In this document: piece by piece, positions 7,479-63,906 of the stretch
Layout of the letters: every line of letters begins with the position of its first letter
How positions within the stretch are numbered: position 1 is the first letter of the stretch
Translations under genes and position numbers: made by a program
The notes under the pieces: model-generated
Told to the model about the DNA's origin: nothing
Databases searched by the model: none
The model's input: the letters and a program-made list of their open reading frames with translations, nothing else
NCBI GenBank assembly: GCA_001777915.1
Contig: MFFN01000007.1
Span: forward strand, 4,807 to 68,806
Direction: 5' to 3'
DNA length: 64,000 nucleotides
Origin: Candidatus Edwardsbacteria bacterium RifOxyA12_full_54_48
Lineage (GTDB): Bacteria > Edwardsbacteria > AC1 > EtOH8

Positions 7479-8153
7479 ATGCACAAGTCTTTTTTGAAAT
7501 ATATTTACGCAATTCTTTCGTTATTATTATTTGTAGAATATATTCCGGCGCAGAATATTGAAAGGGACGAAACAGCAAATGGCGATGATTTATATCAAGA
7601 TACAATAAATATAAAAAAAATAAATAGCAACCTGAATAGTGAACAATATTATTACCCCCCCATGAAACACTTAATGTTGGAAATGGGAGGTAGTACAGTT
7701 GTGGGTACCCTGGGCACGATGGCCATTGGTTCAATAATACACCCTACTGAAAATGCGAATACAAATGGAGAGATATCTGATATTTATCAGCCTTTTGATA
7801 TCCCCATCATATATTGCACGATTTCTTCAATAACAGTGTATGTGGTTGGCAGATCATTAAAAACCAGAGGTTCTCTTGTTTGGTCCGTCGGTATGGCAAA
7901 CGTAATACCTCTGGGGATAATGTCATACGGTTACATAAGTGGTAAACCAGAAGATTATCGGCCAGCTGTTTATGTTTCAAGTATATTTGCACCCTTAATG
8001 GCAACTGTTGCCTATAATATTACAGCTGTGCAACAAAGCAAGAAGGACTTGAAGCATTCGTGTAATTCTACAATAAACACTTGTATTGCATGGAAGTCAA
8101 ATGATATAACAAAGAAAGCTAACCCCTATATAATTATTCAATATAATTTTTAA
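7479..8153 (+). CDS. Hypothetical membrane protein (signal peptide plus about 4 TM segments), AT-rich ORFan
   Basis: GGAGG at 7466-7470, 8 nt upstream of the ATG. N-terminus 'MHKSFLKYIYAILSLLLFVEYIPAQNIE' resembles that of the next ORF. AT-rich codon usage unlike the flanking genes. Confidence 0.5.
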   Translation: MHKSFLKYIYAILSLLLFVEYIPAQNIERDETANGDDLYQDTINIKKINSNLNSEQYYYPPMKHLMLEMGGSTVVGTLGTMAIGSIIHPTENANTNGEISDIYQPFDIPIIYCTISSITVYVVGRSLKTRGSLVWSVGMANVIPLGIMSYGYISGKPEDYRPAVYVSSIFAPLMATVAYNITAVQQSKKDLKHSCNSTINTCIAWKSNDITKKANPYIIIQYNF

Positions 8154-8202
8154 TTAGGATGATAGTTGTGAAAATTAAAAACAAATACAGGGGGAAGAAA
8201 AA

Positions 8203-8562
8203 ATGTGCAAGCCAGTATTAAAATATATGTGCATAGTTCTTTCACTGATATTGTTTGCGGGCTATTTGCCTGCGCAGGTTATTGAAAAAAGTCAAGTTGA
8301 TAGTATTGCTGATGCGCAAGCAGGTTCTGTTAAAATTGATGGAATAAAACAAAGCGATAACACTGCTAAAATGGAAGCCGAAAATGATAGTACTGCCAAG
8401 GCAGATACTATTAGCCAAAAAATAAGCGATAAAGAAAAAGAAGAATTGCGCAAGGAAAAGAAAAAGGCTTTGATTGGGTTGGCAATAGTGGGTGGTATAA
8501 TAGTGACATTTTTATTTCTCGGATATGTGGCCAGCGAGTTGGGTAGTGATGGACCACGCTAA
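8203..8562 (+). CDS. Hypothetical secreted/anchored protein with Lys/Glu-rich middle and C-terminal TM segment, AT-rich ORFan
   Basis: 119 aa. N-terminus 'MCKPVLKYMCIVLSLILFAGYLPAQVIE' is paralogous to the 7479 ORF signal region. C-terminal hydrophobic 'LIGLAIVGGIIVTFLFLGYVA'. Confidence 0.5.
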   Translation: MCKPVLKYMCIVLSLILFAGYLPAQVIEKSQVDSIADAQAGSVKIDGIKQSDNTAKMEAENDSTAKADTISQKISDKEKEELRKEKKKALIGLAIVGGIIVTFLFLGYVASELGSDGPR

Positions 8563-8580
8563 ACGATCAACTGTAACAAG

Positions 8581-11500: not shown

Positions 11501-12294
11501 CAGCAAAAGGCTCTAAGGCAATTGCCGCGCCATTAGTAAAAGCCTACCCAATGTCTGTTGATCCGGTGCCATGTTTCTATGTAGACTTGGGAACCGAAGA
11601 AGCGGGCAATTTTACTATCCAGAAAAAAGGCACGTTTTACTATGGATTGCATCCTGGTTTTACTGTAGATTATCACCCATCAATGCTTAAATATAATTTC
11701 CAAAATCTGGATAAAAACAAACGCTACAGAATTAAAGTTACATATTATCATGAATTTGATAAAGCCATTAAACAAACGCTATCAGTAGACAAAACCTTTA
11801 ATGCAAAATCCAATATTGAGCCCAAAACGGTTGTTACCGAAGAACATTGGATTCCCAATAGTTGTATAAAAGATGGGCAGATAGAGGTAACGATAGCCAA
11901 AATTATTGGTGAATATGCGGTTTGTTCGGTTATAGCTCTCTATGAATATGACCGGGATTGCGACGGTAAAACCTCCGAAGACATCGCCGAAAGCACCAGC
12001 AAGACAGTTAATGTATACAGCTATGAGCTGATGCAGAACTACCCCAACCCCAATACCGGCAAAACGGCCATCAAATATCAATTAGCCCAGCCGGGGAAAG
12101 TCAACCTGAAAATCTACAACACCTTGGGGCAAGTGGTAAAAACCTTGGTTTCGCAGGAACAGCAACCAGGATATTATAATGTAGCCTGGGGTGGTAGAGA
12201 TAATACCGGCAAAACAACAGCCAATGGTGTGTATTTCTACAGATTAGAAGCTGGCGATTTTAAAGCCACCAAGAAGATGGTAGTGATCAGGTAA
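8581..12294 (+). CDS. Very large secreted protein with BNR/Asp-box-like repeats and a T9SS (Por) C-terminal sorting domain
   Basis: 1237 aa with signal peptide. Asp-box-like 'YSIDGGYNWTAI' and 'SSSIDDCETWS'. N-terminal 'NHEGDWEHINVV' segment of uncertain family. C-terminal ~85 aa 'NYPNPNTGKTAIKYQL...KIYNTLGQVVKTL...GVYFYRLEAGDFKATKKMVVIR' matches the T9SS CTD pattern. AT-rich 5' half. Confidence 0.7.
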   Translation: MIIMFLKQIFIALLLSASICSAADSDGNGVPDEVEQALVERFKPCVVLPYSDRGVAPEPVDIMHVNSYITGYNSVREYYYKVPKLWVSFYALAGGDYCGTRPLFRVYQQLYIDYLATWDMPITFATGKFSNVTSETYTYSGYIPDSDYKNQKYAIRLHADYGGPDNGGGYYDQPGGWYDAYLNGRTVTSGTASFTWDKGSNYPATTYAHLFVESGETTIQYYFFYPFNDGWNNHEGDWEHINVVLTGQDPATAQIKRIYYYFHDLCTISWPTGTEPSGYQNFYNVLDGTHPVVFVGGSLSAAGGAGEGSHGSYPTFGIWPDIKYYQDEAVTTHTDYSKYIHYNSINAQIIKGREDYDYNVNPEMSWLGANIRWGHICVASPGDWQQTFDVGQRSPKGPAWQETWRNNYAGYTAYYGPPYSVPYSWTWPTDNTAPTVAINYPSSGSYFIKSRQYRIQWYATDNIGGTNGIKNCFLYYSIDGGYNWTAISGANPILNYNWFNWTVPDVESKNCKIKVSAYDAMGYSAETISPTFTIGSIFAVPTISGSVVSSSSKAELPDVRLASNVNKPYADQAKYKPRYCEFLWAGRVYNSSIIDCGTYYSANILNEAVSLPRTYTAKWVYNIWEGGVVVGMVEGPISSSITVYPPNPNDPVVAETNTSEATAYSNGKKIVVDNAGKIHSVFAISDSVYYSSSIDDCETWSTPTAVGIGKRPAIEITAANMPTICWNNGNRLYSTKKASGAFEEPQLIYTGPEGSEISYLSYVLDQNTNNSYLGWVDEGATGSSVLIATYNPSTSANLSPTPIDQGGADAFKSPSLALDKAGNLKIAWSHSGKVYYKDNSEFFEMGDNGIHPIVDTYGDKTTVVWQEEIAPNIYQVVKKTKGLTGWSDKEIISYPDSLNADFPVVAAAGQYVYSKNVNGSDYDLIWNAEYDNGWSIHTQNLSGAQGGISRYPSIAFKQGWPKSKLYVLWTEEMPAKGSKAIAAPLVKAYPMSVDPVPCFYVDLGTEEAGNFTIQKKGTFYYGLHPGFTVDYHPSMLKYNFQNLDKNKRYRIKVTYYHEFDKAIKQTLSVDKTFNAKSNIEPKTVVTEEHWIPNSCIKDGQIEVTIAKIIGEYAVCSVIALYEYDRDCDGKTSEDIAESTSKTVNVYSYELMQNYPNPNTGKTAIKYQLAQPGKVNLKIYNTLGQVVKTLVSQEQQPGYYNVAWGGRDNTGKTTANGVYFYRLEAGDFKATKKMVVIR

Positions 12295-28756: not shown

Positions 28757-31186
28757 ATGCCAGATAAAAACCGTGAGCTACTAGCCAGCCCGTCCACCCC
28801 CGAAACCCAGGAGCCTCCCCGCTTTTTATTTGCCGGAGAGAAGATCAAAGACCTGCACAGCTCTCTGGCCAACAAGATGTTCCATTTGGTCCAGAAGCGC
28901 AACGGCAATATAGTCAATTTCGACAAACGCAAGATCACCGAGGCCATCTTCAAGGCCGCCCAGGCGGTGGGCGGCACGGACAGCAGCGTCTCCGGGAACC
29001 TGGCCGACGAGGTGGTGCTCTTTTTGTATTCCTCCAAGGGCGATCATCTGCCCAACGTGGAACAGGTTCAGGATGCCGTGGAAAAAATCCTGATAGAACG
29101 CGGCCATGCCAAGACCGCCAAGGCCTATATTCTTTACCGCGACCAGCGGTCCAAGATCCGCCAGCAGAAGATCGTTGCCAGGCCCGATTCGGCAGAAGCC
29201 GGAAAGGAACAGGACGCCACCGATCTGGCGCTGTTCGTCCGGGTGTCGGACGACAACATCGTCCAGTGGGACCGGGAGAGGATCATCAGCGCCCTTAAAA
29301 AGGAGGCCGGGGTGGCCGAGGATATAGCCCACAAGATCGCCCGGGAGGTGGAGGACCAGATCATCAGCGCCAAGGTCAAGCGCCTGACCTCGTCCCTGGT
29401 CCGGGAACTGGTGGATGCCAAACTGGTGGAGCATGGCCTGGAGGAGGCCCGCAAGAAGCACTCCCGGCTGGGGCTTCCCCTGTTCGACGTGGAGAAGATC
29501 CTGACCGACCGCAACCGGGAGAACGCCAACATCCCCCACAATCCCGAGGCCACCAACATGTCGCTGGCCGAGACCATCAACAAGCAGTATGCCCTGGCCA
29601 AGGTCTTCTCCCAGGAGGTGGCCGATGCCCACTCCCGGGGCGATATTCACCTGCACGACCTGGGATTCATCAACCGGCCCTACTGTTCCGGGCAGAGCCT
29701 GGAATATGTCAAAAAATTCGGCCTGTCCCTGCCCAATGCCCTGTCCATCGCCAAGCCTGCCCGGCATGCCGACACCCTGCTGGCCCACATGGTAAAGTTC
29801 TCGGCCGCCCTGCAGGGGCATTTTGCCGGGGCCATCGGCTGGGATGCCGTCAATGTCTTCTTCGCCCCGTATCTGGTGGGCATGTCCGACCGCGACATGC
29901 AGCAGCTGGCCCAGATGATGATCTTTGAATACAGCCAGCAGTCGGTGGCCCGGGGCGGCCAGGCCATCTTCTCCGACCTGAACATCTACTGGGAGACCCC
30001 AAAGCATTTCGAGAACGTCCCGGCCATAGGCCCGGGCGGCGAGTATACCGGAAAGAAATACGGCGATTATCTAAAGGAGTCCCAGCGCTTCGCCTGGGCC
30101 CTGTTCGATGTCTACAAGGGGGGAGACGGCACCGGGCGTCCCTTCTTCTTTCCCAAGCCCCAGGTCCACATCACCGAAAAATTCTACCTGACGCCCGGCC
30201 ATCTGGATTTCCTCAACCATATCTCCCAGGTGGCGGCCGAGAAGGGCAACACCTATTTCGTGTTCGACCGGGGCGAGACCGCCAAGATATCCGAATGCTG
30301 CCGGCTGGCCTTCAAGCTGGAGGAGTCCGATCTGCAGGACGCCCACTTCCCCTGGAAGATGAGATATTCCGCCCTGCAGAACATCACTTTGAACCTGCCG
30401 CGCATCGCCTACCTGGCCAAGGGCGACACCAGCGCCCTGTTCAAAAAGATGGATGACTTCCTGCACCTCTCCGCCAAGGGCCACATTCAAAAGCGCAAGT
30501 TCATCGAAAAGCTGATGTCCCTGAAAGACCAGGGTCCGCTGGCACTGCTGGCCATGGAGAAGGACGGGGAGTCCTATCTGCGCCTGCCCCGGGTGTCGTT
30601 CCTTATAGGCATGCTGGGCCTGAACGAGATGGTCCAGATCCACACCGGCCAGGAGATGCACCAATCAACCGAGGCCTTCAAGTTCGGGTTGAAGGTCATC
30701 GCCTACCTGCATCTAAAGACCAAGGAGCTGGCCAAGGAATACAACATGAAGTTCGTACTGGAGCAGACCCCGGCCGAGAGCACCGCCTTCCGCTTTGCCA
30801 AGCTGGACCTGGAGCAATTCCCCAAGGAGGCCGAGAAGGTGGTCAAGGGCAACCTCAAGGATAATTCGGTCTATTACACCAACTCCACCTATCTGAACGT
30901 CTCTCATGCGGTCAACCCCATCGACCGGGTCAAGCAGGAGGGCAAGTTCCACGACATGATCGAGGCCGGGGCCCTGACCCATATCTGGATCGCCGATTCC
31001 CATCCTTCCCCGGAATCCATCGCCAATTTTGTCACCAAGACCTTCCGCCACACCCGCAATGCCCAGATCGCCTTCTCGCCGGAGTTCACCACCTGCAACG
31101 TCTGCAGCAAGGTCTACCGGGGCCTGATGGACGAGTGCCCGCACTGCAGCGGGAAGAGGGTCAGCGGGATTGAACGGATAAAGTAG
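28757..31186 (+). CDS. nrdD: Anaerobic ribonucleoside-triphosphate reductase large ORF (class III NrdD-like): ATP-cone(s), catalytic domain and Zn-ribbon, but no glycyl-radical motif
   Basis: 809 aa. ATP-cone 'VNFDKRKITEAIFKA'; 'NITLNLPRIAYLAKGD' reminiscent of NrdD; C-terminal Zn-ribbon 'TTCNVCSKVYRGLMDECPHCSG', then stop after 'KRVSGIERIK' with no R-x-x-G-Y motif. Operon context nrdR upstream, nrdG downstream. Confidence 0.7.
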   Translation: MPDKNRELLASPSTPETQEPPRFLFAGEKIKDLHSSLANKMFHLVQKRNGNIVNFDKRKITEAIFKAAQAVGGTDSSVSGNLADEVVLFLYSSKGDHLPNVEQVQDAVEKILIERGHAKTAKAYILYRDQRSKIRQQKIVARPDSAEAGKEQDATDLALFVRVSDDNIVQWDRERIISALKKEAGVAEDIAHKIAREVEDQIISAKVKRLTSSLVRELVDAKLVEHGLEEARKKHSRLGLPLFDVEKILTDRNRENANIPHNPEATNMSLAETINKQYALAKVFSQEVADAHSRGDIHLHDLGFINRPYCSGQSLEYVKKFGLSLPNALSIAKPARHADTLLAHMVKFSAALQGHFAGAIGWDAVNVFFAPYLVGMSDRDMQQLAQMMIFEYSQQSVARGGQAIFSDLNIYWETPKHFENVPAIGPGGEYTGKKYGDYLKESQRFAWALFDVYKGGDGTGRPFFFPKPQVHITEKFYLTPGHLDFLNHISQVAAEKGNTYFVFDRGETAKISECCRLAFKLEESDLQDAHFPWKMRYSALQNITLNLPRIAYLAKGDTSALFKKMDDFLHLSAKGHIQKRKFIEKLMSLKDQGPLALLAMEKDGESYLRLPRVSFLIGMLGLNEMVQIHTGQEMHQSTEAFKFGLKVIAYLHLKTKELAKEYNMKFVLEQTPAESTAFRFAKLDLEQFPKEAEKVVKGNLKDNSVYYTNSTYLNVSHAVNPIDRVKQEGKFHDMIEAGALTHIWIADSHPSPESIANFVTKTFRHTRNAQIAFSPEFTTCNVCSKVYRGLMDECPHCSGKRVSGIERIK

Positions 31187-31321: not shown

Positions 31322-32575
31322 ATGGCCAAAAAGATAGCCGCCATCGTCTTCGTTTTCTTCTGCACCGCCATGGCCTGGGTGATCCTGGGCGGGGTGACGG
31401 TGGACCGCACCAACTCCCAGGACAGCAAGCTCAAGCGGGCGGTGGGCCAGCTGTGGGGCACCACCCAGCGCCAGAGCGCGCCGCTGGTGTTCTACCAGGT
31501 CAGGCAGGAGCAGAAGGTGGTCAAGGCCACCGAGGGGGGCAGGACCGTCACCGAGACCAGGACCAGCCTGTCCGATTACTACCTGAACCTGGAATCCAGC
31601 GACATCAGGGCCGACCTGAGGCTGACCCACCGCAAAAAGGGCCTGCTGTGGTATTCCACCTATCAGGTGGATTTCGACGGCACCTACGGTTTGATCAACA
31701 GCACCTCGGATGAACGCCAGATCTGCTTCCAGTATTCCTTCCCCTCCCGGGACGGCATCTACGACGATTTCGCCATCTCGGTCAACGGCCTGCCGGAGAA
31801 GGAGCTGGTGCCCACCGACGGCAAGATCTGCAAATGGATCCGGCTGAAGCCCGGCCAGACCGCCCAGGTGCGGGTGGCCTACCACTCCCAGGGGCTGGAC
31901 CAGTGGTGGTACGTCTTCGGGGACAATATCTCGCAGATCCGCAATTTTAAGCTGGCCATGACCACCGATTTCGGGCGGATAGATTTCCCGGAGAACGCCA
32001 TCTCGCCCACCGCCAAGCATGCCCTGAGTAATATCGGAGGGACCAAGAAGGGCGGGGGATGGGAGCTAATCTGGCAGTACACCAACCTGATCTCCGGGAT
32101 CCAGATCGGCATGGATATGCCCAAGAAAATAAACCCCGGTCCCTTCGTCAGCAAGATCAGCTTCTTCGCGCCGGTGTCTTTATTCCTGTTCTTCTTCCTG
32201 GTGTTCATCATCACCGCCCTGCGCGGCATAAAACTGCACCCCATGCATTACTTCTTCCTGGCGGCGTCGTTCTTTGCCTTCCACCTGCTGATGGCCTACC
32301 TGGCGGACCACGCCGACATCTACCTGGCGTTCTTCATCAGCGCGGCGGTGTCGGTGTTCCTGGCGGTGTCCTATATGCGGATCGTGGCCGGGGCCCGCTT
32401 TGCCCTGGTGGAGACGGCCCTGGCCCAGCTGGTTTACCTGGTGTTCTTTTCCTACGCCTTCTTCTGGGAGGGATACACCGGGCTGGCCATCACCATCTGC
32501 TGTATTGCCACGCTGTTCGTGGTGATGCAGTTCACGGCCAGGATAGATTGGGATAAGCAGTTTTCGGGGAAATGA
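31322..32575 (+). CDS. CreD-like inner membrane protein (N-terminal TM, large periplasmic domain, C-terminal multi-TM region)
   Basis: Topology and length resemble CreD-family envelope proteins. AAGGAG 5 nt upstream of the ATG at 31322. Family assignment is by architecture only. Confidence 0.45.
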   Translation: MAKKIAAIVFVFFCTAMAWVILGGVTVDRTNSQDSKLKRAVGQLWGTTQRQSAPLVFYQVRQEQKVVKATEGGRTVTETRTSLSDYYLNLESSDIRADLRLTHRKKGLLWYSTYQVDFDGTYGLINSTSDERQICFQYSFPSRDGIYDDFAISVNGLPEKELVPTDGKICKWIRLKPGQTAQVRVAYHSQGLDQWWYVFGDNISQIRNFKLAMTTDFGRIDFPENAISPTAKHALSNIGGTKKGGGWELIWQYTNLISGIQIGMDMPKKINPGPFVSKISFFAPVSLFLFFFLVFIITALRGIKLHPMHYFFLAASFFAFHLLMAYLADHADIYLAFFISAAVSVFLAVSYMRIVAGARFALVETALAQLVYLVFFSYAFFWEGYTGLAITICCIATLFVVMQFTARIDWDKQFSGK

Positions 32576-32608
32576 GGGGCAAGTAGGCGGGTATGGGTAT
32601 TCAGGAGA

Positions 32609-32684
32609 CAGGAGACAGTAGGGGCGAAGTCTCTTCGCTCTGGGCCTAATCAAGAAGATAGTGATGAAGGGCCTTCGCCCGACC
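32609..32684 (+). repeat. Direct repeat copy B (~76 bp) flanking the CreD-like gene
   Basis: 'caggagacagtaggggcgaagtctcttcgctctgggcctaatcaagaagatagtgatgaagggccttcgcccgacccc'; by eye roughly 85-90% identical to copy A apart from a 6-nt indel. Confidence 0.7.
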
Positions 32685-32850
32685 CCTCCCTGGCCCTCCC
32701 CGCAGCGGAGAGGGAATGGACATTGCGAAGAGGCGAGTTAATGTAAGAAAAAGCCAAGCGTTTAATGCTGTGAGTGTACTGAAATGAATTTTACTAAAGG
32801 TGCGTATTCAAATAACTATTACTAAGATTGTAGAAAAAATAGGGGGTTTT

Positions 32851-33093
32851 ATGGAAATTGTGAGAAAAGCACCTGCAGCCTTGAATCTTTTATGGAAAGA
32901 AGGTTTTTTTAAGAAGGATAAAAGTATAGCTGAAGTAGAAACTGTGTTGCACGAGAAAGGTTATAATTTTGGTTCTGCCACACGTAAGGCACTAGAGCGT
33001 ACAAAGTTTCTTATGCAAAAAGGTGAAAGGGGTAATAGGAGGTTCATACAGAAGCACCCATATGTGGAGATAAAAAATGAAAAACACAAGTAA
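32851..33093 (+). CDS. Hypothetical small basic protein (AT-rich island, paralog 1)
   Basis: ATG at 32851 with AGGGGG 5-10 nt upstream. Shares a 'KEGFFKKDKSIAEVETVLHEKGY...RKALER' region with the next ORF. Confidence 0.45.
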   Translation: MEIVRKAPAALNLLWKEGFFKKDKSIAEVETVLHEKGYNFGSATRKALERTKFLMQKGERGNRRFIQKHPYVEIKNEKHK

Positions 33094-33400
33094 GGATTTA
33101 TTGAAAGTATTAGTAGATCACGAAAAACGTATATCGAGGTTAGAAAGTTCGGGCGCAAAAATTAAACCACCAAGAGTAAAGAAAAATATCTCTCTGCCAG
33201 ATCATATTCTTGCATTAAGAGACAAGGGTTTCTTTGCCAAACCTAAAACAGTAGAAGATACACAGAATAGGTTATCAGATTTCTATTCATGTGATAAGAA
33301 CCGTGTAGCAGTGGCACTATTAAGGTTATCTACCAAAAAGCAATTACGAAGAACTTCAACAAAGAAAAACGATAAAAATAATATTGCGTTTACATGGTGA
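33077..33400 (+). CDS. Hypothetical small basic protein (AT-rich island, paralog 2)
   Basis: 107 aa. 'DKGFFAKPKTVEDTQNRLSDFY...RVAVALLRL' aligns with the previous ORF. Lys-rich C-terminus. Confidence 0.45.
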   Translation: MKNTSKDLLKVLVDHEKRISRLESSGAKIKPPRVKKNISLPDHILALRDKGFFAKPKTVEDTQNRLSDFYSCDKNRVAVALLRLSTKKQLRRTSTKKNDKNNIAFTW

Positions 33401-34182
33401 GCAACATGAATAAACCCGATATAATAAAAAAAATAAAACTTATACAAATTAAAAAGAATACAATCCAGTATTATATTATACAATTATTAATTAAGGGAAT
33501 ACTAAACGACATAGTTGATTCGGCGGGTTTGGCTCATCTTATTAATGAAGAGTATCAAAGGAAGATTAAACCCTCAGATATTGTGGCATGCATTAAGCCC
33601 ATTGTTAGTAACGATATATTACGTAGTCTTATTATCAAAAAGGGTAAACGGTCATATAGGTATTGGTATCCAGCTTGGATAGCAAAGGATGTCGCTATTT
33701 CTAGGGTCAATAAAACAAAAGAAAAGGTATTGTTTATTACTGGACATGAAGCATGGTCAGACCAAAATAAAAGATTAAAAAGTATTTTCGATATTTTGGA
33801 AGGCGAAATAGATATCATCGATCCTTATTATGGATATAATACCCTGCATGCGCTATCATTATTTGGGAAAACAAGAAAGGTCCGTTTTCTAACTTGCAAT
33901 ACTGGTAATAGTGAAAAACGAGATATTACAAATTTTAATTTGCAGTTTGCAAGATTTAAAAAAGAATTTCGTAATATATTATTCAAACAATTTGCGTTAC
34001 CTGAAATACACGATAGGTATATTTTGTCTAAAAATGCAATTGTTATCATCGGTCATGGGATAAAAGATATTGGCAACAAAGAGTCCTTTGTCATTTATCT
34101 AGAGAAAGAATTGGTTTCCAAAATATTGCCAACACTGCGAAAACTATTCAATCTTAAATGGAGCAATTCAATAAATATATAA
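33394..34182 (+). CDS. Hypothetical protein (AT-rich island) with a C-terminal segment resembling a degenerate PLD-like (H-x-K-type) motif
   Basis: 262 aa. 'IHDRYILSKNAIVIIGHGIKDIG' resembles the PLD/Nuc 'HxK(x)4D(x)6G' signature but with Arg in place of Lys. No confident family assignment. Confidence 0.4.
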   Translation: MVSNMNKPDIIKKIKLIQIKKNTIQYYIIQLLIKGILNDIVDSAGLAHLINEEYQRKIKPSDIVACIKPIVSNDILRSLIIKKGKRSYRYWYPAWIAKDVAISRVNKTKEKVLFITGHEAWSDQNKRLKSIFDILEGEIDIIDPYYGYNTLHALSLFGKTRKVRFLTCNTGNSEKRDITNFNLQFARFKKEFRNILFKQFALPEIHDRYILSKNAIVIIGHGIKDIGNKESFVIYLEKELVSKILPTLRKLFNLKWSNSINI

Positions 34183-34313
34183 TAAAGTGCTATGTGGTTG
34201 TAGGCATTGTAGTTGCGATAGTTAGTATTTAATAAATTGTCTTCGTTTTTTTTTCTGCACCACGGGCTTGGATCATCTTGAGTGGGTGGTAAACAACTCT
34301 TGGCAATAAGTAA

Positions 34314-35259: not shown

Positions 35260-35958
35260 ATGGAAATAAAAGGCTTCATCGAAACATCGCTGATCGACTG
35301 GGACGGAAAGATCGTCTCGGTCCTTTTTCTTCCCGGCTGCAACTTCCGCTGTCCGTTCTGCCACAATCATGTTTTGGTCAAGCACCCGGAGCAGATCGCC
35401 GACGTCCCCTGGAAACGCATAGAAACGTTTTTAAAGGGCAAGAAGGGCTGGATAGACGGGGTGGTGATCACCGGGGGTGAGCCCACCATCCACCAGGATC
35501 TGATGCCCCTGCTGACGAAACTGAAGGAAATGGGCCTGCCGGCCAAATTAGACACCAACGGCAGCAACCCGGCCCTGTTAAGGGAGATAATAGACCTGGG
35601 CCTGGTAAAATTCATCGCCATGGACATCAAGGCCTCTTTCGACGGATCCTATGACCGGGCCTGCGGGGTTGCCGTAAACAAAGAGAATATCAGGGAAAGC
35701 ATCGGCCTGATCATGTCCTCCGGCCTGGAGTATGAGTTCCGCACCACCATTGTTCCGCAATATCACGATCTGGATTCGGTTGAAAATATGGCAAAAGAGA
35801 TAAAAGGGGCAAAAAAGTGGGTTTTACAGCAGTTTGTCCAAACCAATGCCGACGACGAGGGGCTACGTAGTCTGCCGCCATATGATGAGGAATACCTGGA
35901 GGAGATGAAAAAGAGGGCGAAAGGATTGGTGGAAAGGGTGGTTTTAAGGGGAATATAA
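35260..35958 (+). CDS. nrdG: Anaerobic ribonucleotide reductase activating protein-like radical SAM enzyme
   Basis: 232 aa. Radical-SAM cluster motif 'PGCNFRCPFCHN'; 'GVVITGGEPT'. Confidence 0.75.
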   Translation: MEIKGFIETSLIDWDGKIVSVLFLPGCNFRCPFCHNHVLVKHPEQIADVPWKRIETFLKGKKGWIDGVVITGGEPTIHQDLMPLLTKLKEMGLPAKLDTNGSNPALLREIIDLGLVKFIAMDIKASFDGSYDRACGVAVNKENIRESIGLIMSSGLEYEFRTTIVPQYHDLDSVENMAKEIKGAKKWVLQQFVQTNADDEGLRSLPPYDEEYLEEMKKRAKGLVERVVLRGI

Positions 35959-50479: not shown

Positions 50480-52054
50480 ATGAAGAATTCCATCACTGTT
50501 ATCATCAACGCCGATATATACACCATGAAGGGGCGGCAGAGGGCCAAAGCCCTGGCCTGCGATGCCGGGGGCGGAACGATCCTGGATGTGGGCGGGAACA
50601 GCCAGATACTGGGCAGATACAAGGCCCTGAAGCCCGAGGTCATCGACCTGAAGGGGAAGGTGGTCCTGCCGGGCTTCACCGACTGCCACACCCATTTCTG
50701 CAATTACTGCCTGCTGGCCTCCCGGCCGGACCTGGACGGCATCCGGTTCATCAAGGAATGCCTGCAGGCGGTGGCCAGGTATGTCACCGGGAAAGCGCCC
50801 GGCCAGTGGGTCTTGGGCGGGGGCTGGAACAAGAACCTCTGGAGCGACGGCCGTCTGCCGGCAGCCCAGGACCTGGACACGGTGTCCATCAACAATCCGG
50901 TGATGCTGTGGAGCAAGGACTGGCACACCATCTGGCTGAACTCGGCGGCCATGGTGGCGCTGGACATCCACTCCCAGACCCCGGAGGTCCCCGGCGGAAC
51001 AATCGAGCGCGACGCCAGGGGCAGGCCCAGCGGCATCCTGCGGGAGGAAGCGGCCAATCACTACTATCGCCTGGCTCCCAAGGCATCGATCGAGGAATAT
51101 TCCCAGGCCGTGATCCAGGGCCAGAAGAGATTCGCCCAAATGGGCCTGAGCGGGTTCCATACCATGGAGGGGGTGGAGGAATTCAATGTTCTGCAGTCTT
51201 TGTCGATCCAGAACAAATTATTCTTAAGAGGAACGCTTTACCATAACATCAAGGCCCTGGACGGGCTGGCCTCGGCCGGGATAAAAAGCGGTTTCGGCGG
51301 TCGGAATTTGAAGATCGGAGGGGTAAAACTCTTTGTCGACGGGTCGCTGGGCTCCCAGACGGCATTGATGCTGGAGCCATACCGCAACAGCGCCTCATTG
51401 GGCATGAACACCATGCCGCCCGGGGAACTGCTGGCCCTGATAAGCCGGGCCTCGCAGAACGGCCTGGCCTGCGCCATTCATGCCATCGGCGATGCCGCCA
51501 ACCGCCTGGCGCTGGATACTTTTCAGAAGGCCAAGGATCTCAATAAAGATCTGCGGCACCGGATAGAGCACTGCCAACTGGTCCATCCCGAAGATATTGC
51601 CAGGTTCAAGGAGCTGGGCATCATCGCCTCGGTGCAGCCCATCCATTGCCCGTCCGACCTGGACATCATCGAAAAATACTGGGGAGAGCGGGGGGCCTAT
51701 GCTTACCCGTTCGGCGATCTGTCCAGGAAAAAGGCCAGGGTGGTCTTCGGCTCGGATTGTCCCATCGAAACGCCGGATCCGTTCCGGGCCATTCAGGCGG
51801 CCGTCGCCCGGCAGAGGATCCCGCCGGACCGTCCGCCGTTCCATCCGGAGCAGAAGATGTCGGTCTGGAACTGCATCAAGGCCTATACTGCCGATGCCGC
51901 CTATGCCTCGGGGGATGAGGGCTGGAAGGGGACTTTGGAGCCCGGCAAGGCGGCGGACTTTATCTGCCTTTCGGAGGATATTTTCCAGGCAAACCCGGAG
52001 GAGATACATAAGATAAAGGTGGAGAGGACATTCATCGGCGGGAGAGAGATTTAA
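50480..52054 (+). CDS. Amidohydrolase-family metal-dependent hydrolase
   Basis: 'VLPGFTDCHTHF' metal-binding motif; 'HAIGDAA'; 524 aa. Confidence 0.8.
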   Translation: MKNSITVIINADIYTMKGRQRAKALACDAGGGTILDVGGNSQILGRYKALKPEVIDLKGKVVLPGFTDCHTHFCNYCLLASRPDLDGIRFIKECLQAVARYVTGKAPGQWVLGGGWNKNLWSDGRLPAAQDLDTVSINNPVMLWSKDWHTIWLNSAAMVALDIHSQTPEVPGGTIERDARGRPSGILREEAANHYYRLAPKASIEEYSQAVIQGQKRFAQMGLSGFHTMEGVEEFNVLQSLSIQNKLFLRGTLYHNIKALDGLASAGIKSGFGGRNLKIGGVKLFVDGSLGSQTALMLEPYRNSASLGMNTMPPGELLALISRASQNGLACAIHAIGDAANRLALDTFQKAKDLNKDLRHRIEHCQLVHPEDIARFKELGIIASVQPIHCPSDLDIIEKYWGERGAYAYPFGDLSRKKARVVFGSDCPIETPDPFRAIQAAVARQRIPPDRPPFHPEQKMSVWNCIKAYTADAAYASGDEGWKGTLEPGKAADFICLSEDIFQANPEEIHKIKVERTFIGGREI

Positions 52055-52076
52055 AATATTAATTATTGGGGGTTAT

Positions 52077-52688
52077 ATGAGAAATACAATAATATTCGTA
52101 ATCATCGCAACAATATTTTATTCGTGCGATAAAATAGAAGAAAATAATAATACAAAAGTGGATATTAAAAGGAATACGCAAACTATACAAGATTCAACAA
52201 TATATTGTGCTTTAAAATACAATCTTGAAATTTTTACAATGGCACACAGTACATCAAATAATATTGATTCTATTATAAAGTATTATGAATTAAATGAAAA
52301 TAATAAAATTGAAAGCAAAGCAAAGTCATTTCCGGAAACGCAAGAAGATGAACATCTTTTAAATACATTCATTGGTATAATTATGAAAGGGAAATTAAAT
52401 GTTACATATATAATAAAAATGACGCTGATTAATAAAAACAATGCTGAACTAGGGGAGGTGTTTATTGATGTTCTTGCAAAACATTGGCAAAACCCAGAGA
52501 AAGATTTCATTAAGGCCGTTATCAGCTTGCCAGATTCAGAGTGTGCAAGAATTATTTATAGCACAATTCCGGAAGAGCCAAAAGAAGTAAAAGAAATTAT
52601 AAAAAAGGTAGATAAATTATCGGAAATAAAAAATCTAAAAGGCTATGATTTATTAAAGAAAATATTAATTGAATTAGCTAATAGATAA
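52077..52688 (+). CDS. Hypothetical lipoprotein (AT-rich ORFan)
   Basis: 203 aa. Lipobox 'IFYSCDK'; Lys/Asn/Ile-rich; strongly AT-rich relative to neighbours. Confidence 0.5.
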   Translation: MRNTIIFVIIATIFYSCDKIEENNNTKVDIKRNTQTIQDSTIYCALKYNLEIFTMAHSTSNNIDSIIKYYELNENNKIESKAKSFPETQEDEHLLNTFIGIIMKGKLNVTYIIKMTLINKNNAELGEVFIDVLAKHWQNPEKDFIKAVISLPDSECARIIYSTIPEEPKEVKEIIKKVDKLSEIKNLKGYDLLKKILIELANR

Positions 52689-52800
52689 TATATTACCCCG
52701 GCGACGGCTGATCCGCAGCATCCTTGGCCACGGCCTGCAATTCCTTCCTGCATTTTATATTCACTTTGCTCATCAACGCCAATCAGCACTTTATGTGGGT

Positions 52801-53645
52801 GTCGCATTAGCTCTGCTGCTGAATAAAGAAGGCCGTTAGGAATTTGGCATTGTCTGAGCAAAGCGAGTTTGTCAAATTTAGGCCTTCGGTCTTAAGGCTT
52901 CCGGGCAGAGGTATAGCGACAGGTTCTCTTTGCCACTTTCTCTTCAAAGAGAAAGTGGGGAACCATGGACCCTCTTACTTTTCTGCAGGCCAGAAAAGTA
53001 ACAAAAGAACCTTGTCCGCCCGGCAATTTCCGGCAGGAATGATACTCACGGACTAAATTCCTTGACCGGGGCGGGGAGATAAGCTCTGCAATGAATTTTT
53101 CACGCCCGTTTTGCTGGGGCAAAATTGCCGAAGGCGGGGAACCGAGTACCTAGGTCGCATCAGCTCTGCTGCTGACGAGCTTTTGACCTCATCCTTCCCT
53201 CTCCTAATGCTTTATGAGAGGGGTAGGGGAGAGGTGCGGGACAAAAAAGAAAAAGAACAGCATAATTCCCCAAAACGTGCCTTACTTTCTCTTGTGACCA
53301 AGAGAAAGTAACAAAGAGAAGTCTTGCCCGCCCGACAATTTCCGGCAGGAATGATATCCCCGGGCTAAATTCCTTGACCAGGGCTGGGTGCTATGCTCTG
53401 CAATGAATTTTCACGCCCGCTCCCGCCATAGCAAAATTGCCGAAGGCGGGGGAACGGGTAATGTCCGGTCGCATTAGCTCTGCTGCTGAATAAAGAAGGC
53501 ACTTAGGAATTTGGCATTGTTTGAGCGAAGCGAGTTTGTCAAATTTAGGCCGACGTCATAGGACTGCCAAGCAGAGGTTTAGCGACGAGCTGTTGACCTC
53601 ACCCTTCCCTCTCCTAATGCTTTAGGAGAGGGGCAGGGGAGAGGT
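52801..53645. repeat. Mosaic array of nested ~60-150 bp direct repeats (non-coding)
   Basis: R1 'gtcgcattagctctgctgctgaataaagaagg...gtttgtcaaatttaggcc' at 52801-52884 and 53469-53552; R3 (~150 bp, 'ccgcccggcaatttccggcaggaatgata...gcaaaattgccgaaggcgggg') at 53003-53153 and 53318-53468; R2 ('...gacctcatccttccctctcctaatgctttatgagaggggtaggggagaggtg') at 53154-53237 and 53583-53645; common 22-nt head 'gtcgcatYagctctgctgctga' three times. Confidence 0.8.
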
Positions 53646-53766
53646 GTTATAAGAGAAAGCGGAGGCTGGTTTTGAAAGAAAATAACAAAGGGACGATCAA
53701 ATGATCGTCCCTTAAATATTCCTGGCGCCCGCTCAAGGCGGACTACTGCCCAGCGAGAAGTCAAAC

Positions 53767-53842
<76 letters not shown>

Positions 53843-53984
53843 ACAAAGTGCGGTAATGATAACATATCGATAGAGGGTTAGTCAATATCTTTAATGCCCG
53901 CAATGCGGCAGATCCTGGCTTGACATGCCGCGCCGGGGTTGTTATAATCATATGAAATTTAATGAATAACATTGATATCCAGAT

Positions 53985-55073
53985 ATGAAAAAGAACATTT
54001 TAATTTCGGCTTTCCTTGCCGGGCTTGTCTCCCTGGCCCTGGCCGGCTCATTCGGGAAACAGCCCAAACCAGCCATCCAGAAAGGCCCCTACCTGTCCTG
54101 GGACGACGATCTCCGGACCACCATGACCGTCAGCTGGGAGACCAATACTCCTGTTCCCGGGAAACTGGCCTACGGACCCCGGGGTAAAATGAACTACATC
54201 CTGCGGGACGACCAAGCCGGGACCCTGCACCACTTGAGGATAAAAGATCTCAAGCCCGACACCCGCTACTATTACCAGTTGCTGAACCTGTCGGCCCCGG
54301 TCTGCAGTTTTAAGACCGCACCCCGGGAGATGCGGGATTTCAAATTCGTCATCTACGGCGACACCCGGACCTTTCCGGAGCAGCACAAAAAGGTGATCGC
54401 GGCCATAACCCAATACAACCCGGAGTTCCTGATCCACACCGGGGATTACATCCAGGACGGGCGGGTATGGGGCATGTGGCAGGAGTTCTTCGACGCCAGC
54501 CGGCCGTTCTCCTCCTTTATCCCTCTGATGACGGTGATCGGCAACCACGAACGGACCTGCGACAACTATGTGAAGCTGTTCGCCCTGCCCGGCAATGAAA
54601 GGTGGTATGCCTTCGATTATCTGAATGTTCACTTCATCATATTGAACAACGAAGAAAACTACCAGAAAGATTCCCAGCAATACCGGTGGTTCGAGGCCGA
54701 GATAAAACGATCCCGGCCGCTCTATAAATGGCTGTTCGTCCTCCAGCACCGCCAGACCTACTCCTCTGGCAAGCGGGGCAGCGACCAGGATATCCTGGAG
54801 AACCTGGAGCCGCTGTTCAGGAAATACCGGCCGGATGTGGTGTTCTGCGGGCACGAGCATTTTTACGAAAGGCAGCGGCGGGGCGGCGTCAACTATATCA
54901 TCACCGGCGGGGGCGGGGCCCCGCTGTACGACGTCAATCCAGGGGATTCCACCTTCCATGCCGAATCCAGCCTGCACTACTGCCAGGTCGAGGTCAGCGA
55001 CAGCGCCGCCAAGGTGCGGATGGTCCGGGTGGACGGCAGTTCGCCGGACAGTTTGGTGCTGAAGGCCAGATAG
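53985..55073 (+). CDS. Metallophosphoesterase (purple acid phosphatase-like) with N-terminal fibronectin-like domain
   Basis: 'FVIYGDTRT', 'IHTGDYIQDG', 'VIGNHE', 'CGHEHFYER' calcineurin-like phosphoesterase motifs; signal peptide. Confidence 0.8.
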   Translation: MKKNILISAFLAGLVSLALAGSFGKQPKPAIQKGPYLSWDDDLRTTMTVSWETNTPVPGKLAYGPRGKMNYILRDDQAGTLHHLRIKDLKPDTRYYYQLLNLSAPVCSFKTAPREMRDFKFVIYGDTRTFPEQHKKVIAAITQYNPEFLIHTGDYIQDGRVWGMWQEFFDASRPFSSFIPLMTVIGNHERTCDNYVKLFALPGNERWYAFDYLNVHFIILNNEENYQKDSQQYRWFEAEIKRSRPLYKWLFVLQHRQTYSSGKRGSDQDILENLEPLFRKYRPDVVFCGHEHFYERQRRGGVNYIITGGGGAPLYDVNPGDSTFHAESSLHYCQVEVSDSAAKVRMVRVDGSSPDSLVLKAR

Positions 55074-59505: not shown

Positions 59506-59534
59506 TTGACAACCCAAGGGCCCGCTGATATAAT
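59506..59534 (+). promoter_or_regulatory. Consensus sigma-70-type promoter (TTGACA, 17 bp, TATAAT) upstream of the UbiA-family gene
   Basis: TTGACA at 59506-59511, 17-nt spacer, TATAAT at 59529-59534. Confidence 0.6.
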
Positions 59535-60515: not shown

Positions 60516-60664
60516 TTGCACACGGATGACACTGATCGTGGGATATTTCCACGGATATTTTACCCATGTTTCTTTGGGTTATGAATTATATACACCTGTT
60601 CCTGATGCTGAATCTTTTATGGCTGAGTGTTTGCAGCGCCCAGCCGGAAAAGGAGGGACAAGCT

Positions 60665-62092
60665 ATGAATATAAGAAGGTCCATCATTGCCGGAAGCTGG
60701 TATCCGGGAGAAGCCGATAAGCTATCGGCTCAGATAAATAAATATCTTGATGCGGCAAAGAAGGCCGAAAGCGATGGCGTGTTGACGGGCATCATCGTCC
60801 CCCATGCCGGGTACCTGTACTCCGGACCGACCGCGGCCTATGCCTACAAGAACATCAATCCTGAAAACATCTCCACCGTTATCATGGTGGGTCCCAGCCA
60901 CAGCGCCTATTTTGAGGGGACGGCGGTCTATGGCTTCGGTGCCTGGGAGACGCCGCTGGGTAAGACCGAGATCGACTCCAAGTTGGCCGAAGAGATAATT
61001 TCCCAGGACCAGAAATACATCAATGACAACCCCGGGGCCCATGCCAAAGAACATTCACTGGAGATACAGCTCCCGTTCCTGCAGTCCGTGATGCACTCTG
61101 GATTTAAGATAGTGCCGATAATGCTCTACGATCAGTCACTGGCCTCCTGCGATCGCCTGGCTCAGACCATAGCCGGGGCGGTCAAGGGACGGGACGATGT
61201 CCTGCTGCTGGCCTCCAGCGACCTGTCGCACTACCATTCCCAGGCCGAGGCGAAAAGGCTGGATAAATTGGTGATGGATGCCGTGGGTAAATTTGATCCC
61301 GAAAAATTAGCCGGTGACCTGGCCTTTGAAAAATGCGAGGCCTGCGGAGGCGGTCCGATGGTGACGGTGATGCTGGCCTGCCGCTATCTGGGGGCGGACA
61401 GGTCCGTGGTCTATGACTACCGGACCTCCGGCGATGTGACCGGGGACAAGGGCCAGGTGGTGGGATATCTGGCAGCGGGGCTCTATAATACAAAAAACAA
61501 AAAAGAAAAAATCAAAAAACAAATAATAGAAGACGATAAATTAACACTGGAGGAGAAAAGAGAACTTTTCCGGATAGCGCACCAGTCGATCGAGGCTGAG
61601 GTCAGAGGACTGCCCAAGCCGAAGTTCACACCGCTGACCCCCAGGCTGGCCGAACTACGGGGCGTCTTCGTCACCCTGAAGGAAAGCGGCAATCTGCGGG
61701 GCTGCATCGGATATATAGAGGGCATAAGGCCGCTGTACCAGGCGGTGGCGGAGATGGCGGTGGCGGCGGCCACCGGGGACCCCCGTTTCCCTCCGGTGAC
61801 AACAAGAGAATTACCGGAATTGGAGTATGAGATATCGGTATTGACCCCCAAGAGGCAGATAGATTCGCCGGAAGAGTTCATTGTGGGCAGGCATGGTATA
61901 ATAGTCCAGCGGGGCGGGCGCTCCGGGGTGTTTTTGCCGCAGGTGGCGGCCGAGGAAGGATGGACCCGCGAGGAAACGTTGTCGTATTTATGCCTGCACA
62001 AAGCCGGCCTGCCGGCCGGGGCCTGGAAGGATAAGGAGACGAAATTGTTCGTGTTCGAGGCCGAGGTGATAGAAGGAAAGGATATAAAATGA
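60665..62092 (+). CDS. Fusion protein: MEMO1-like domain (AmmeMemoRadiSam protein B-like) plus AMMECR1 domain (protein A-like)
   Basis: N-terminal 'GIIVPHAGYLYSG' (Memo family); C-terminal 'LRGCIGYIEG' and 'GRHGIIVQRGGRSGVFLPQVA' (AMMECR1). Lys-rich linker 'KNKKEKIKKQIIEDDK'. ATG at 60665 with GGAGGG upstream. Confidence 0.75.
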   Translation: MNIRRSIIAGSWYPGEADKLSAQINKYLDAAKKAESDGVLTGIIVPHAGYLYSGPTAAYAYKNINPENISTVIMVGPSHSAYFEGTAVYGFGAWETPLGKTEIDSKLAEEIISQDQKYINDNPGAHAKEHSLEIQLPFLQSVMHSGFKIVPIMLYDQSLASCDRLAQTIAGAVKGRDDVLLLASSDLSHYHSQAEAKRLDKLVMDAVGKFDPEKLAGDLAFEKCEACGGGPMVTVMLACRYLGADRSVVYDYRTSGDVTGDKGQVVGYLAAGLYNTKNKKEKIKKQIIEDDKLTLEEKRELFRIAHQSIEAEVRGLPKPKFTPLTPRLAELRGVFVTLKESGNLRGCIGYIEGIRPLYQAVAEMAVAAATGDPRFPPVTTRELPELEYEISVLTPKRQIDSPEEFIVGRHGIIVQRGGRSGVFLPQVAAEEGWTREETLSYLCLHKAGLPAGAWKDKETKLFVFEAEVIEGKDIK

Positions 62093-63048
62093 AAAAAACA
62101 CCATACAGGGTAATTTTTGTCTTAACTTTGATTTGCAGTTTTAACGCTGTTGCCAACGATACGCATATGGGTAGTGTTGGCGGAAATATTTATCCCAGTA
62201 AGAGTAATTCCATCCAAATGGTAAAAGAAAGAATAAATGCAGTAATGTATCATGACAGTTTTACTGTTAGCTGTAAGTTTTGGTTTTATAACCTTGAAAA
62301 ACCCGAATATATTAACGTGGGGTTCCCAGATGCGGTAAATAATAGTGATAGTCCGGCGGCAGATACTTTGCGCAATTTTAAAGTCATTATTAATGGTAAG
62401 CCTGAAGAGATTACACGAGTAAAACAGATTTCAACCGGTTATAACCACGAAACACTCACGAACACGGAGTATTGGTTTACTTGGAAAATGCATTTCCCGT
62501 CAAAAGAGACAGTGTTTGTTGAAAATTATTATACTGGTAGCTACAGCCATAACGCCGGTGGTTTATATTTTGTTAGTTATATAATCGGAACCGGTAGCAC
62601 TTGGCAGGGTTCGATAAAAGATGGGCGAGTCGTTTTCAATCACTCAAATTTGGCAACTAATTATTTTATAAATGATACTTTCCCAGGATATACAAATATT
62701 AAACCCGCATATTATCAAGATAGCGTTGTATATGCTTTTACTAAATATAGACCAAAGGAAAGTGAAATATTGATCGTAGAACTTTATCCGTATTGGGCTA
62801 ACTCAAATATATACGAATTTAAAAAGTATTTAGAGAAAAATAATTATACAAAAAAAGAATTACGTTTAATTCGCAATGAAATATTCGCAAGGCGTGGGTA
62901 TGTTTTTAACGATAAAAGTTTAAATAAATATTTTACCAGTAAAAAATGGTACAAACCAAATAATAATTTCAAAGCATCCATGTTGAATGAGTATGAACAA
63001 AACATGATAAATTATTTATCTCAATTAGAAAAAGAAGCCAATATATAA
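62089..63048 (+). CDS. Secreted YARHG-domain protein (AT-rich gene)
   Basis: Signal peptide; C-terminal 'LRLIRNEIFARRGYVFNDKSLNKYFTSKKWYKP' matches the YARHG domain pattern. Confidence 0.6.
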   Translation: MKKTPYRVIFVLTLICSFNAVANDTHMGSVGGNIYPSKSNSIQMVKERINAVMYHDSFTVSCKFWFYNLEKPEYINVGFPDAVNNSDSPAADTLRNFKVIINGKPEEITRVKQISTGYNHETLTNTEYWFTWKMHFPSKETVFVENYYTGSYSHNAGGLYFVSYIIGTGSTWQGSIKDGRVVFNHSNLATNYFINDTFPGYTNIKPAYYQDSVVYAFTKYRPKESEILIVELYPYWANSNIYEFKKYLEKNNYTKKELRLIRNEIFARRGYVFNDKSLNKYFTSKKWYKPNNNFKASMLNEYEQNMINYLSQLEKEANI

Positions 63049-63057
63049 CATTTAATT

Positions 63058-63372
63058 ATGCGACAAAAACAGATCATCGAAGAAATGGCCCTGCTGGCCG
63101 AAAAACTGGGCCTCAACATCAAATTCGACGAATTCGACGGGCGAGGCGGCTGGTGCCGGGTCAAGGACAGCCAGCGGATAATCATCAACAAACGGCTGGG
63201 GCCGCAGGAGCAGATTAGAATATTGTCCCAGATCCTGGCCGGTTATCAGATCGAGGAGCAGTCCATGGCCCCCAAGGTCCGCCAGCTCATCGAGGAGGCC
63301 CGGGAGGAGCTGCAGCCGGCCTTGGATATCTCGGATAAAACTTCTTCAGTCGATACCAAACCGGAGAAATAG
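63058..63372 (+). CDS. Hypothetical protein
   Basis: 104-aa ORF in host-like GC context; no recognisable motif. Confidence 0.4.
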   Translation: MRQKQIIEEMALLAEKLGLNIKFDEFDGRGGWCRVKDSQRIIINKRLGPQEQIRILSQILAGYQIEEQSMAPKVRQLIEEAREELQPALDISDKTSSVDTKPEK

Positions 63373-63375
63373 GGC

Positions 63376-63906
63376 ATGGACCAGACCACGATCAATTTAA
63401 TCAATTGCCGGGAGTGCCAAAAGACGGTCAGCCCCAACGCCCGGAGCTGCCCCCACTGCGGGGCGCCCCAGCCGGCCAACCAAACCTGGAACGGGTGGGG
63501 GTTCGACTGGAGGTCCAAAACCTCCTACTACGGCTGGCCTCTGGTCCACATCTCGGTGGGCAAGGACCGCCACGGCAAGCTTCGGGTGGCCAGGGGCTGG
63601 ATCGCCATCGGGCAGTTCGGCATCGGCCTGATCACCATCGCCCAGTTCGGGGTGGGAATCCTTTTCGGTCTGGGACAGTTCATCTTCGGCATAACGGCGG
63701 TGGCCCAGTTCGCCATCGGCCTGCTGTTCGGGCTGGGACAGTTCGCCACCGGTTACGTGGCCATCGGCCAGATGGCCCTGGGATACTATGCCTATGCCCA
63801 GATCGGCCTGGCCAAATATCTCTGGACAAAAAATTGCCAGGACCCCGAAGCGATCAGGTTCTTTCTGGACCTTAAAGGACGGGCCCTGGCGTTAATCGGA
63901 AAATAA
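63376..63906 (+). CDS. Zinc-ribbon protein with six tandem 11-residue hydrophobic 'G-Q-F-x-x-G' repeats
   Basis: 'CRECQKTVSPNARSCPHCGAP' zinc ribbon; repeats 'IAIGQFGIGLIT / IAQFGVGILFG / LGQFIFGITAV / AQFAIGLLFG / LGQFATGYVAI / GQMALGYYAYA'. Confidence 0.5.
   Translation: MDQTTINLINCRECQKTVSPNARSCPHCGAPQPANQTWNGWGFDWRSKTSYYGWPLVHISVGKDRHGKLRVARGWIAIGQFGIGLITIAQFGVGILFGLGQFIFGITAVAQFAIGLLFGLGQFATGYVAIGQMALGYYAYAQIGLAKYLWTKNCQDPEAIRFFLDLKGRALALIGK

Follow-up and report, generated by a model that had tools for sequence, protein, structure and literature searches.

A Memo-AMMECR1 fusion gene beside a UbiA prenyltransferase gene in Candidatus Edwardsbacteria: a widespread architecture with a possible export signal

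In the three-gene form of the AmmeMemoRadiSam system, protein A (AMMECR1, TIGR04335), protein B (Memo, TIGR04336) and a radical S-adenosylmethionine (SAM) enzyme (AmrS, TIGR04337) are encoded separately. A gene that joins the first two, with no AmrS beside it, raises the question of whether the fusion is genuine, how unusual it is and where its product might act. Such a gene is found in a 64,000-nucleotide stretch of Candidatus Edwardsbacteria bacterium RifOxyA12_full_54_48 (the window; assembly GCA_001777915.1, contig MFFN01000007.1, positions 4,807 to 68,806 of the forward strand). A sequence-only reading, made by a model from the letters and open reading frames (ORFs), had described it as a fusion through a Lys-rich linker, without an adjacent radical SAM partner and with a UbiA prenyltransferase and a YARHG protein as neighbours. 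The gene is very probably an intact and ordinary member of a widespread form in which Memo (B) and AMMECR1 (A) make up a single polypeptide.

Both domains were recovered by independent profiles (Table 1). Residues 8 to 270, counted in the 475-residue form that starts at the ATG at 60665, match Pfam Memo (PF01875; 224 bits against a cut-off of 27, E 2e-66) and NCBIfam TIGR04336 (283.7 bits, cut-off 26), with positions 1 to 268 of the 270 in the latter profile covered. Residues 303 to 468 match Pfam AMMECR1 (PF01871; 186.5 bits, cut-off 25, E 3e-55) and TIGR04335 (175.6 bits, cut-off 99). Both non-radical-SAM parts of the three-gene system are thus present above curated cut-offs, neither domain failing its profile, and they are fused here, as the sequence-only reading had said. 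Alignment places H47, H79, D186, H189 and C227 of the Memo domain opposite H49, H81, D189, H192 and C244 of human MEMO1 (3bcz), of which H49, H81 and C244 are the iron ligands (PMC11081632). These five residues are invariant across 68 homologues, as is the LRGCIG motif of the AMMECR1 domain (R345-G349) in the same alignment. Since the iron-site residues and LRGCIG are invariant, the two domains, both complete, look functional.

The nearest structural relatives are single-domain proteins. Human MEMO1 (PDB 3BCZ, 7KQ8) has the same fold (Foldseek, target-normalised template modelling (TM) score 0.83) and the same His/His/Cys iron site with an Asp and a His (PMC11081632), but it is only about 25% identical to this Memo domain and is a stand-alone cytosolic protein. 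The archaeal AMMECR1 homologues PH0010 (1VAJ), MM0484 (1ZQ7) and ST0229 (1WSC) can be aligned with the whole of the C-terminal domain (E 1e-33 to 2e-23) and share LRGCIG; unlike the fused protein, they stand alone, and they have no known function. The C-terminal domain superposes on PH0010 with a target-normalised TM-score of 0.79 and a root mean square deviation of 1.5 Å. No solved chain in the structure comparison spans both Memo and AMMECR1. An AlphaFold model built from the 68 homologues has a mean pLDDT (predicted local distance difference test) of 91, and its sole low-confidence stretch is residues 279 to 289 of the linker (pLDDT 34). The linker, NTKNKKEKIKKQIIEDDK, is indeed Lys-rich. 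In the model the protein is two well-folded domains joined by what is predicted to be a flexible tether. The model was also inspected for a fixed Memo-AMMECR1 interface, and no claim to one is made since the predicted TM-score (pTM) is 0.62, although the domains themselves are confident.

The sequence-only reading implied that such a fusion is rare, which the database comparison does not support. Both Pfam domains occur in 119 of the 120 best database matches, and proteins of this kind already carry the Joint Genome Institute (JGI) name 'AmmeMemoRadiSam system protein B/AmmeMemoRadiSam system protein A'. In a metagenome scan, from which the best 80 loci of at least 600 pattern matches were retained, all 80 match over both domains or up to the ends of their contigs. 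Fused proteins in JGI and NCBI from Deltaproteobacteria, Cloacimonadota, WOR-3 and other lineages have the same domain order, a similar length (~470 to 510 residues), the conserved residues and a variable, low-complexity linker; their identity to the protein studied here reaches 90% inside the Edwardsbacteria clade and is 35 to 56% beyond it. The length of the linker is nearly constant (56 to 75 residues between two conserved motifs in 113 homologues). The fusion is a widespread, standard and already automatically annotated architecture, and finding it here is ordinary and already known.

A frameshift or assembly error in a homopolymer-rich linker could in principle have joined two genes. The linker DNA holds four A6 runs, and two sister Edwardsbacteria genomes do have separate Memo and AMMECR1 genes that are split at the linker. 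This explanation has a negligible probability. The identical 503-residue protein is present on six contigs (100% identity), including as a hypothetical protein of Candidatus Edwardsbacteria bacterium RIFOXYD12_FULL_50_11 (GCA_001777945.1), and separate assemblies hold fused relatives at 90, 85, 78, 64 and 56% identity, part of a set that spans 35 to 90% across many independent assemblies. Because the same protein recurs on six contigs and fused relatives come from independent assemblies, a frameshift or chimeric join is excluded. Nor do the split relatives look like the product of a one-base indel: in place of the Lys-rich linker they carry a stop codon, an unrelated spacer of ~60 nt and a fresh start codon (ATG). 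The artefact hypothesis, which the sequence-only reading had itself named as a possible refutation, was dropped since the independent assemblies agree and the split relatives show a true stop, spacer and start.

The split genes (one pair from isolate DeMMO3_1, L003, the other P0030) are informative in their own right. Their domains are 89 to 91% identical to those of the fused protein and they have a UbiA neighbour of the same family; for P0030 the probable neighbour is P0122, whose contig is equally long (322489 bp). The two Memo parts are 90.6% identical to each other and the C-termini differ, so that two distinct genomes are represented. As all more distant relatives are fused, the split is a secondary fission. 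Fused and split states are evidently interchangeable within one genus-level clade, to judge from these sequences, and this supports a functional coupling of Memo and AMMECR1. The view that the fusion links the two domains is therefore sustained, also by the secondary split, but it adds nothing beyond the family definitions, of which a functional Memo-AMMECR1 link is already the premise. As originally put, the finding matters little; fusion and secondary fission in one genus-level clade, showing the two states to be interchangeable, is of modest use.

The radical SAM partner was sought by tblastn with six AmrS sequences and with a purpose-built AmrS profile on the six-frame translation. These searches detected no AmrS in the window or the next 10 kb (L020), which leaves ~60 kb upstream and 12 kb downstream of the fused gene free of it; compared with the three-gene system, the partner is thus missing from the ~74 kb examined, and the statement that none is adjacent is correct. 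So is the statement that the nearest radical SAM gene is an nrdG-like one about 25 kb away. The CX3CX2C motif occurs in only one ORF of the window, which matches TIGR02495 with 192 bits (cut-off 131) and encodes NrdG2; it ends 24.7 kb upstream of 60665. This gene was considered as the missing AmrS partner and ruled out by its TIGR02495 score, by its score on the AmrS profile (30 bits for the region, compared with > 430 bits for true near-full-length AmrS) and by its nrd context. It lies 4 kb downstream of NrdR and of an ORF of 809 residues (28757-31186), which is NrdD-like by size only.

Lack of a neighbouring AmrS is not unusual, contrary to what had been implied. In four deltaproteobacterial loci a true AmrS (TIGR04337, 362 to 408 bits) precedes the fused gene by ~100 bp, and in three Cloacimonadota loci a true AmrS (TIGR04337) lies 2.5 to 5 kb from it. 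Among the metagenome loci AmrS is present in 38 of 80 overall, in 27 of the 49 with ≥ 1.5 kb on both sides and in 15 of the 29 with ≥ 4 kb on both sides, the other 14 of these well-flanked loci being without it; where present it is mostly upstream and on the same strand. To be without adjacent AmrS is a common state, found in about half of fused loci. While about half of the fused loci elsewhere have AmrS directly upstream on the same strand, the locus studied here and its closest clade have none nearby, and here a UbiA gene lies upstream instead. Across the closest clade the count is 0 of 11 distinct loci (the window, L001, L004, L021, L023, L025, L027, L028, L030, L034 and L035).

Eukaryotes possess MEMO1 and AMMECR1, as separate genes. 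It is conceivable, at rather low odds, that the radical SAM step would be supplied in Edwardsbacteria by an unlinked amrS or would be dispensable as it is in eukaryotes. A stronger version, that the genome lacks AmrS and the fused product is a radical-SAM-independent pair acting mainly in redox reactions or metal handling through bound iron or copper, would agree with the absence of AmrS from all 11 closest-clade loci, with the conserved iron-binding His/His/Cys triad of MEMO1 (PMC11081632) and with the MgtE-like and Nramp metal-transporter genes that follow the fused gene at a distance of a few genes in L023, L027 and L030 (11173-12951 in L030). It is nevertheless improbable. The negative search covers ~74 kb of this genome; with a Cloacimonadota AmrS as query, the best 120 matches list only Cloacimonadota and Omnitrophota proteins, so that this search is uninformative on Edwardsbacteria; and AmrS does adjoin fused loci whose proteins are 44 to 49% identical (L036, L042, L043 and L044).

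The 5' end of the gene adds to the sequence-only reading. The frame is open upstream of 60665, the stop-free ORF running from 60566 to 62092, and the extension MFLWVMNYIHLFLMLNLLWLSVCSAQPEKEGQA contains the hydrophobic stretch MNYIHLFLMLNLLWLSVCSAQPEKEGQA. In the identical protein of GCA_001777945.1, the start annotated by NCBI corresponds to the ATG at 60581 (503 residues). Of the earlier delimitation of the gene as 60665-62092, the end and the domains stand; the start may not be 60665 alone. Almost all fused homologues examined, whatever their phylum, have an equivalent extension that is ATG-led, stop-free and signal-peptide-like, and within the close clade (L001, L002, L003, L004, L023, L025, L027 and L028 besides the window) a Cys occupies the same aligned position in it. 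A hydrophobic core is present in 73 of 77 database proteins annotated in the long form and at the N-terminus in 48 of 77 metagenome loci. Between close relatives the extension has diverged almost wholly (to saturation) at the DNA level while keeping its hydrophobic property. On shuffling, an ATG-led, stop-free and hydrophobic extension is expected in 0.3 to 2.7% of shuffles per locus, and it was observed in nine of nine loci. Moreover, the deltaproteobacterial leaders and most of those in Cloacimonadota must be translated because no internal Met exists there. The long form is probably real, and its product may be exported or lipid-anchored, as far as the sequences can tell. As a lipoprotein signal peptide the extension is imperfect: there is no positively charged n-region, and Val at the -1 position is atypical of a lipobox.

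A similar tendency is seen in the AmrS proteins encoded beside fused genes. Among 35 distinct near-full-length sequences, a twin-arginine motif (for example, MNRRDFLK and LDRRSFLKCALASGAALG) opens about 20, another hydrophobic N-terminus is present in five and eight have none; in addition, a hydrophobic segment lies at the N-terminus of 109 of 111 AmrS homologues from Cloacimonadota and Omnitrophota. The pattern, xRRxFLK followed by a hydrophobic stretch, can be seen in AmrS at L005 (8775-9884), L010 (8787-9893) and L011 (969-2087) and within L036 to L112. On deltaproteobacterial AmrS the Pfam TAT_signal profile gave a sub-threshold match (14.3 bits, cut-off 22.7), so the twin-arginine call rests on the motif and its recurrence. 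Such leaders suggest, from sequence, a radical SAM enzyme that is membrane-bound or exported. A literature search that did not extend to Burroughs et al. 2019 found no paper on a radical SAM enzyme that is periplasmic or exported by the twin-arginine translocation (Tat) route. If real, the leaders would mean that a radical SAM system is located beyond the cytoplasm, an unexpected prospect that deserves a dedicated look.

A further feature of the locus is the gene upstream. It encodes a UbiA-family prenyltransferase (70.2 bits against PF01040, cut-off 34.2), whose translation contains both Asp-rich motifs, NQIFDVETD and DHNSD. No subfamily could be assigned: all 19 of its NCBIfam matches are far under cut-off, the best being PRK12875 (59.5 bits against 205), and the equivalog cut-offs for 4-hydroxybenzoate polyprenyltransferase, DGGGP synthase, chlorophyll synthase and MenA are not reached. 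As every NCBIfam match is below cut-off, the JGI label '4-hydroxybenzoate polyprenyltransferase' is unsupported. Upstream of the gene, a sigma-70-type sequence that agrees with the consensus at 12 of 12 positions probably serves as the promoter for a putative operon of UbiA and the fused gene. The gap between the UbiA gene and the fused gene is only 50 to 150 nt, so their co-transcription is likely from the layout. A weak terminator-like hairpin (60536-60554; eight pairs, poor T-run) also lies past the UbiA stop, ahead of the fused gene, and could modulate read-through.

The UbiA gene adjoins the fused gene in L001, L020, L021/L022 and L030, and the pair is kept while its outer neighbours differ (89% identity in L001 and 64% in L021/L022; UbiA 61% identical in L030, a genome labelled TA06). 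The family is small, with 149 matches in the homologue search. UbiA was considered as a general partner of fused genes, a role that is unsupported outside the Edwardsbacteria/TA06 clade, to which the pairing is confined. Some distant UbiA relatives follow UppS and CdsA genes (Zixibacteria; L031, 3213-6903) and others directly precede a geranylgeranyl-reductase-like gene (L032, 245-2428), contexts that, by analogy, hint at a role in isoprenoid lipid synthesis. The pairing may reflect a functional link to isoprenoid chemistry, which would agree with what Burroughs et al. 2019 reportedly describe, and it offers one concrete, testable candidate for the substrate pathway of a family that includes the human disease-linked proteins MEMO1 and AMMECR1.

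Taken with the leaders, these observations may be read as follows, with a probability of roughly 0.35: the fused B-A proteins are an exported version of AmmeMemoRadiSam, represented here by a lipoprotein on the outer face of the membrane that perhaps acts on the UbiA product, maybe with a short cytoplasmic form besides, and accompanied elsewhere by a Tat-exported AmrS. How such a protein might work can be suggested only tentatively. The fused gene would be co-transcribed with the UbiA gene from the consensus promoter, an arrangement that is held with low confidence. The long form, starting at 60566 or 60581, would carry a lipoprotein-type signal peptide that places the tethered domains at or beyond the membrane; there they would form a metal-dependent tailoring enzyme whose small substrate would be membrane-associated, plausibly the isoprenoid made by UbiA, although placement and enzyme together are a doubtful proposition. 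AMMECR1 would bind or activate this substrate and the Memo iron centre would perform a redox step, so that both domains would act on the same small molecule.

Several observations weigh against the exported version and its proposed mechanism. Of the three in-frame ATGs, only the internal one at 60665 has a perfect Shine-Dalgarno sequence ahead of it, those at 60566 and 60581 having none; L030 and L008, although close relatives, are without a signal-like extension. The UbiA family is missing from all 80 metagenome loci, its distant homologues are not encoded beside Memo-AMMECR1, and the adjacency could just as well be gene order that was inherited and has no functional meaning. With the pTM of the model, no fixed interface can be assigned confidently to the domains that are supposed to share a substrate. 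In other lineages the fused gene has translation-related contexts, being near a ribosomal protein operon and QueT, near EF-G and Dtd, or near TrpRS and SpoU. Finally, no biochemical function is known for the bacterial members, so the mechanism is inference only; a literature search on AmmeMemoRadiSam and on AMMECR1 with Memo, in which Burroughs et al. 2019 was not covered, found no functional study.

Since a Shine-Dalgarno sequence is found only at 60665, the protein may stay in the cytoplasm or be produced as two forms; a cytoplasmic version from that start, besides the long one, is possible on the sequence. If the cytoplasmic form is the only one, the protein might work with an unlinked AmrS as a classical three-component system that modifies a nucleotide base or RNA, UbiA being incidental. 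Burroughs et al. 2019 reportedly tie Memo systems to nucleotide base modification. The strong ribosome-binding site 8 nt before 60665 is kept in relatives, with GGAGG recurring before the internal ATG in L001, L002, L003, L004, L023, L025, L027 and L028, and gene callers start at the equivalent of Met 60665 in 40 of 117 matches. The contexts elsewhere also fit, among them a QueT queuosine-precursor transporter gene. A wholly cytoplasmic, AmrS-dependent protein is still doubtful, as the signal-like in-frame extension has been kept despite saturating nucleotide divergence, amrS is absent from ~74 kb here and from the 11 closest-clade loci, and the adjacency of UbiA persists down to 61 to 64% identity.

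The contexts in question are as follows. In L028/L029 (9618-12386) the fused gene ends a ribosomal protein operon and precedes the QueT gene. In L034 (4931-9515) it comes after genes for EF-G and D-Tyr-tRNA deacylase, and in L035 (5141-9530) after genes for TrpRS and a SpoU methylase.

Table 1. Features of the fused locus, its surroundings in the window and the split relatives. Positions are those of the window unless a locus is named.
Feature	Position	Strand	Basis or remark
NrdG2, anaerobic (class III) ribonucleotide reductase activase; sole radical SAM gene in the window	35260..35958	+	TIGR02495, CX3CX2C
Sigma-70-type promoter-like site, TTGACA, 17 nt, TATAAT, with TG	59506..59534	+	Consensus match 12/12, upstream of the UbiA gene
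UbiA-family prenyltransferase, 312 residues	59577..60515	+	Pfam PF01040, Asp-rich motifs
In-frame N-terminal extension, ATG at 60566 and 60581	60566..60664	+	Signal-peptide-like/lipoprotein-like, clade-shared Cys
Shine-Dalgarno sequence AAGGAGG	60650..60656	+	8 nt ahead of the ATG at 60665
Fused AmmeMemoRadiSam B-A gene, short form, 475 residues	60665..62092	+	Coordinates of the sequence-only reading; Pfam and NCBIfam matches
Memo domain, residues 8-270	60686..61474	+	Pfam, NCBIfam
Lys-rich, A-rich linker, disordered in the model	61475..61570	+	AlphaFold pLDDT, alignment
AMMECR1 domain, residues 303-468, with LRGCIG	61571..62068	+	Pfam, NCBIfam, alignment
YARHG-domain gene (YARHG/DUF4424-like)	62089..63048	+	Pfam PF13308; 4-nt overlap of its start with the stop of the fused gene
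Two small genes, 104 residues (no known family) and 176 residues (zinc ribbon and hydrophobic repeats)	63058..63906	+	
Split Memo and AMMECR1 genes of sister Edwardsbacteria	L003 413-1962 (isolate DeMMO3_1); P0030		Sequence comparison

Both neighbours named by the sequence-only reading are confirmed by Pfam, and only one of them is conserved: UbiA is kept in the clade, whereas the YARHG gene is a strain-specific insertion of low guanine plus cytosine (GC) content. Its GC is 0.324, compared with 0.53 to 0.61 in its neighbours, and it is not at the equivalent position, before the gene for the 104-residue protein, in L001, L003 or L030. The YARHG gene is foreign DNA that was inserted recently, and it probably does not belong to the system; as a candidate partner it was ruled out by its 32% GC and its absence from relatives. 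The two small genes downstream, in contrast to the YARHG gene, also follow the fusion in L001, L003, L016 and L030.

Further low-GC blocks occur in the window at 8000-12000, 32000-34200 and 52000-54000 (0.40 to 0.43, compared with ~0.58 elsewhere) and are possibly more inserted DNA. The one between the 809-residue ORF and the nrdG gene holds three small ORFs (32800-34182).

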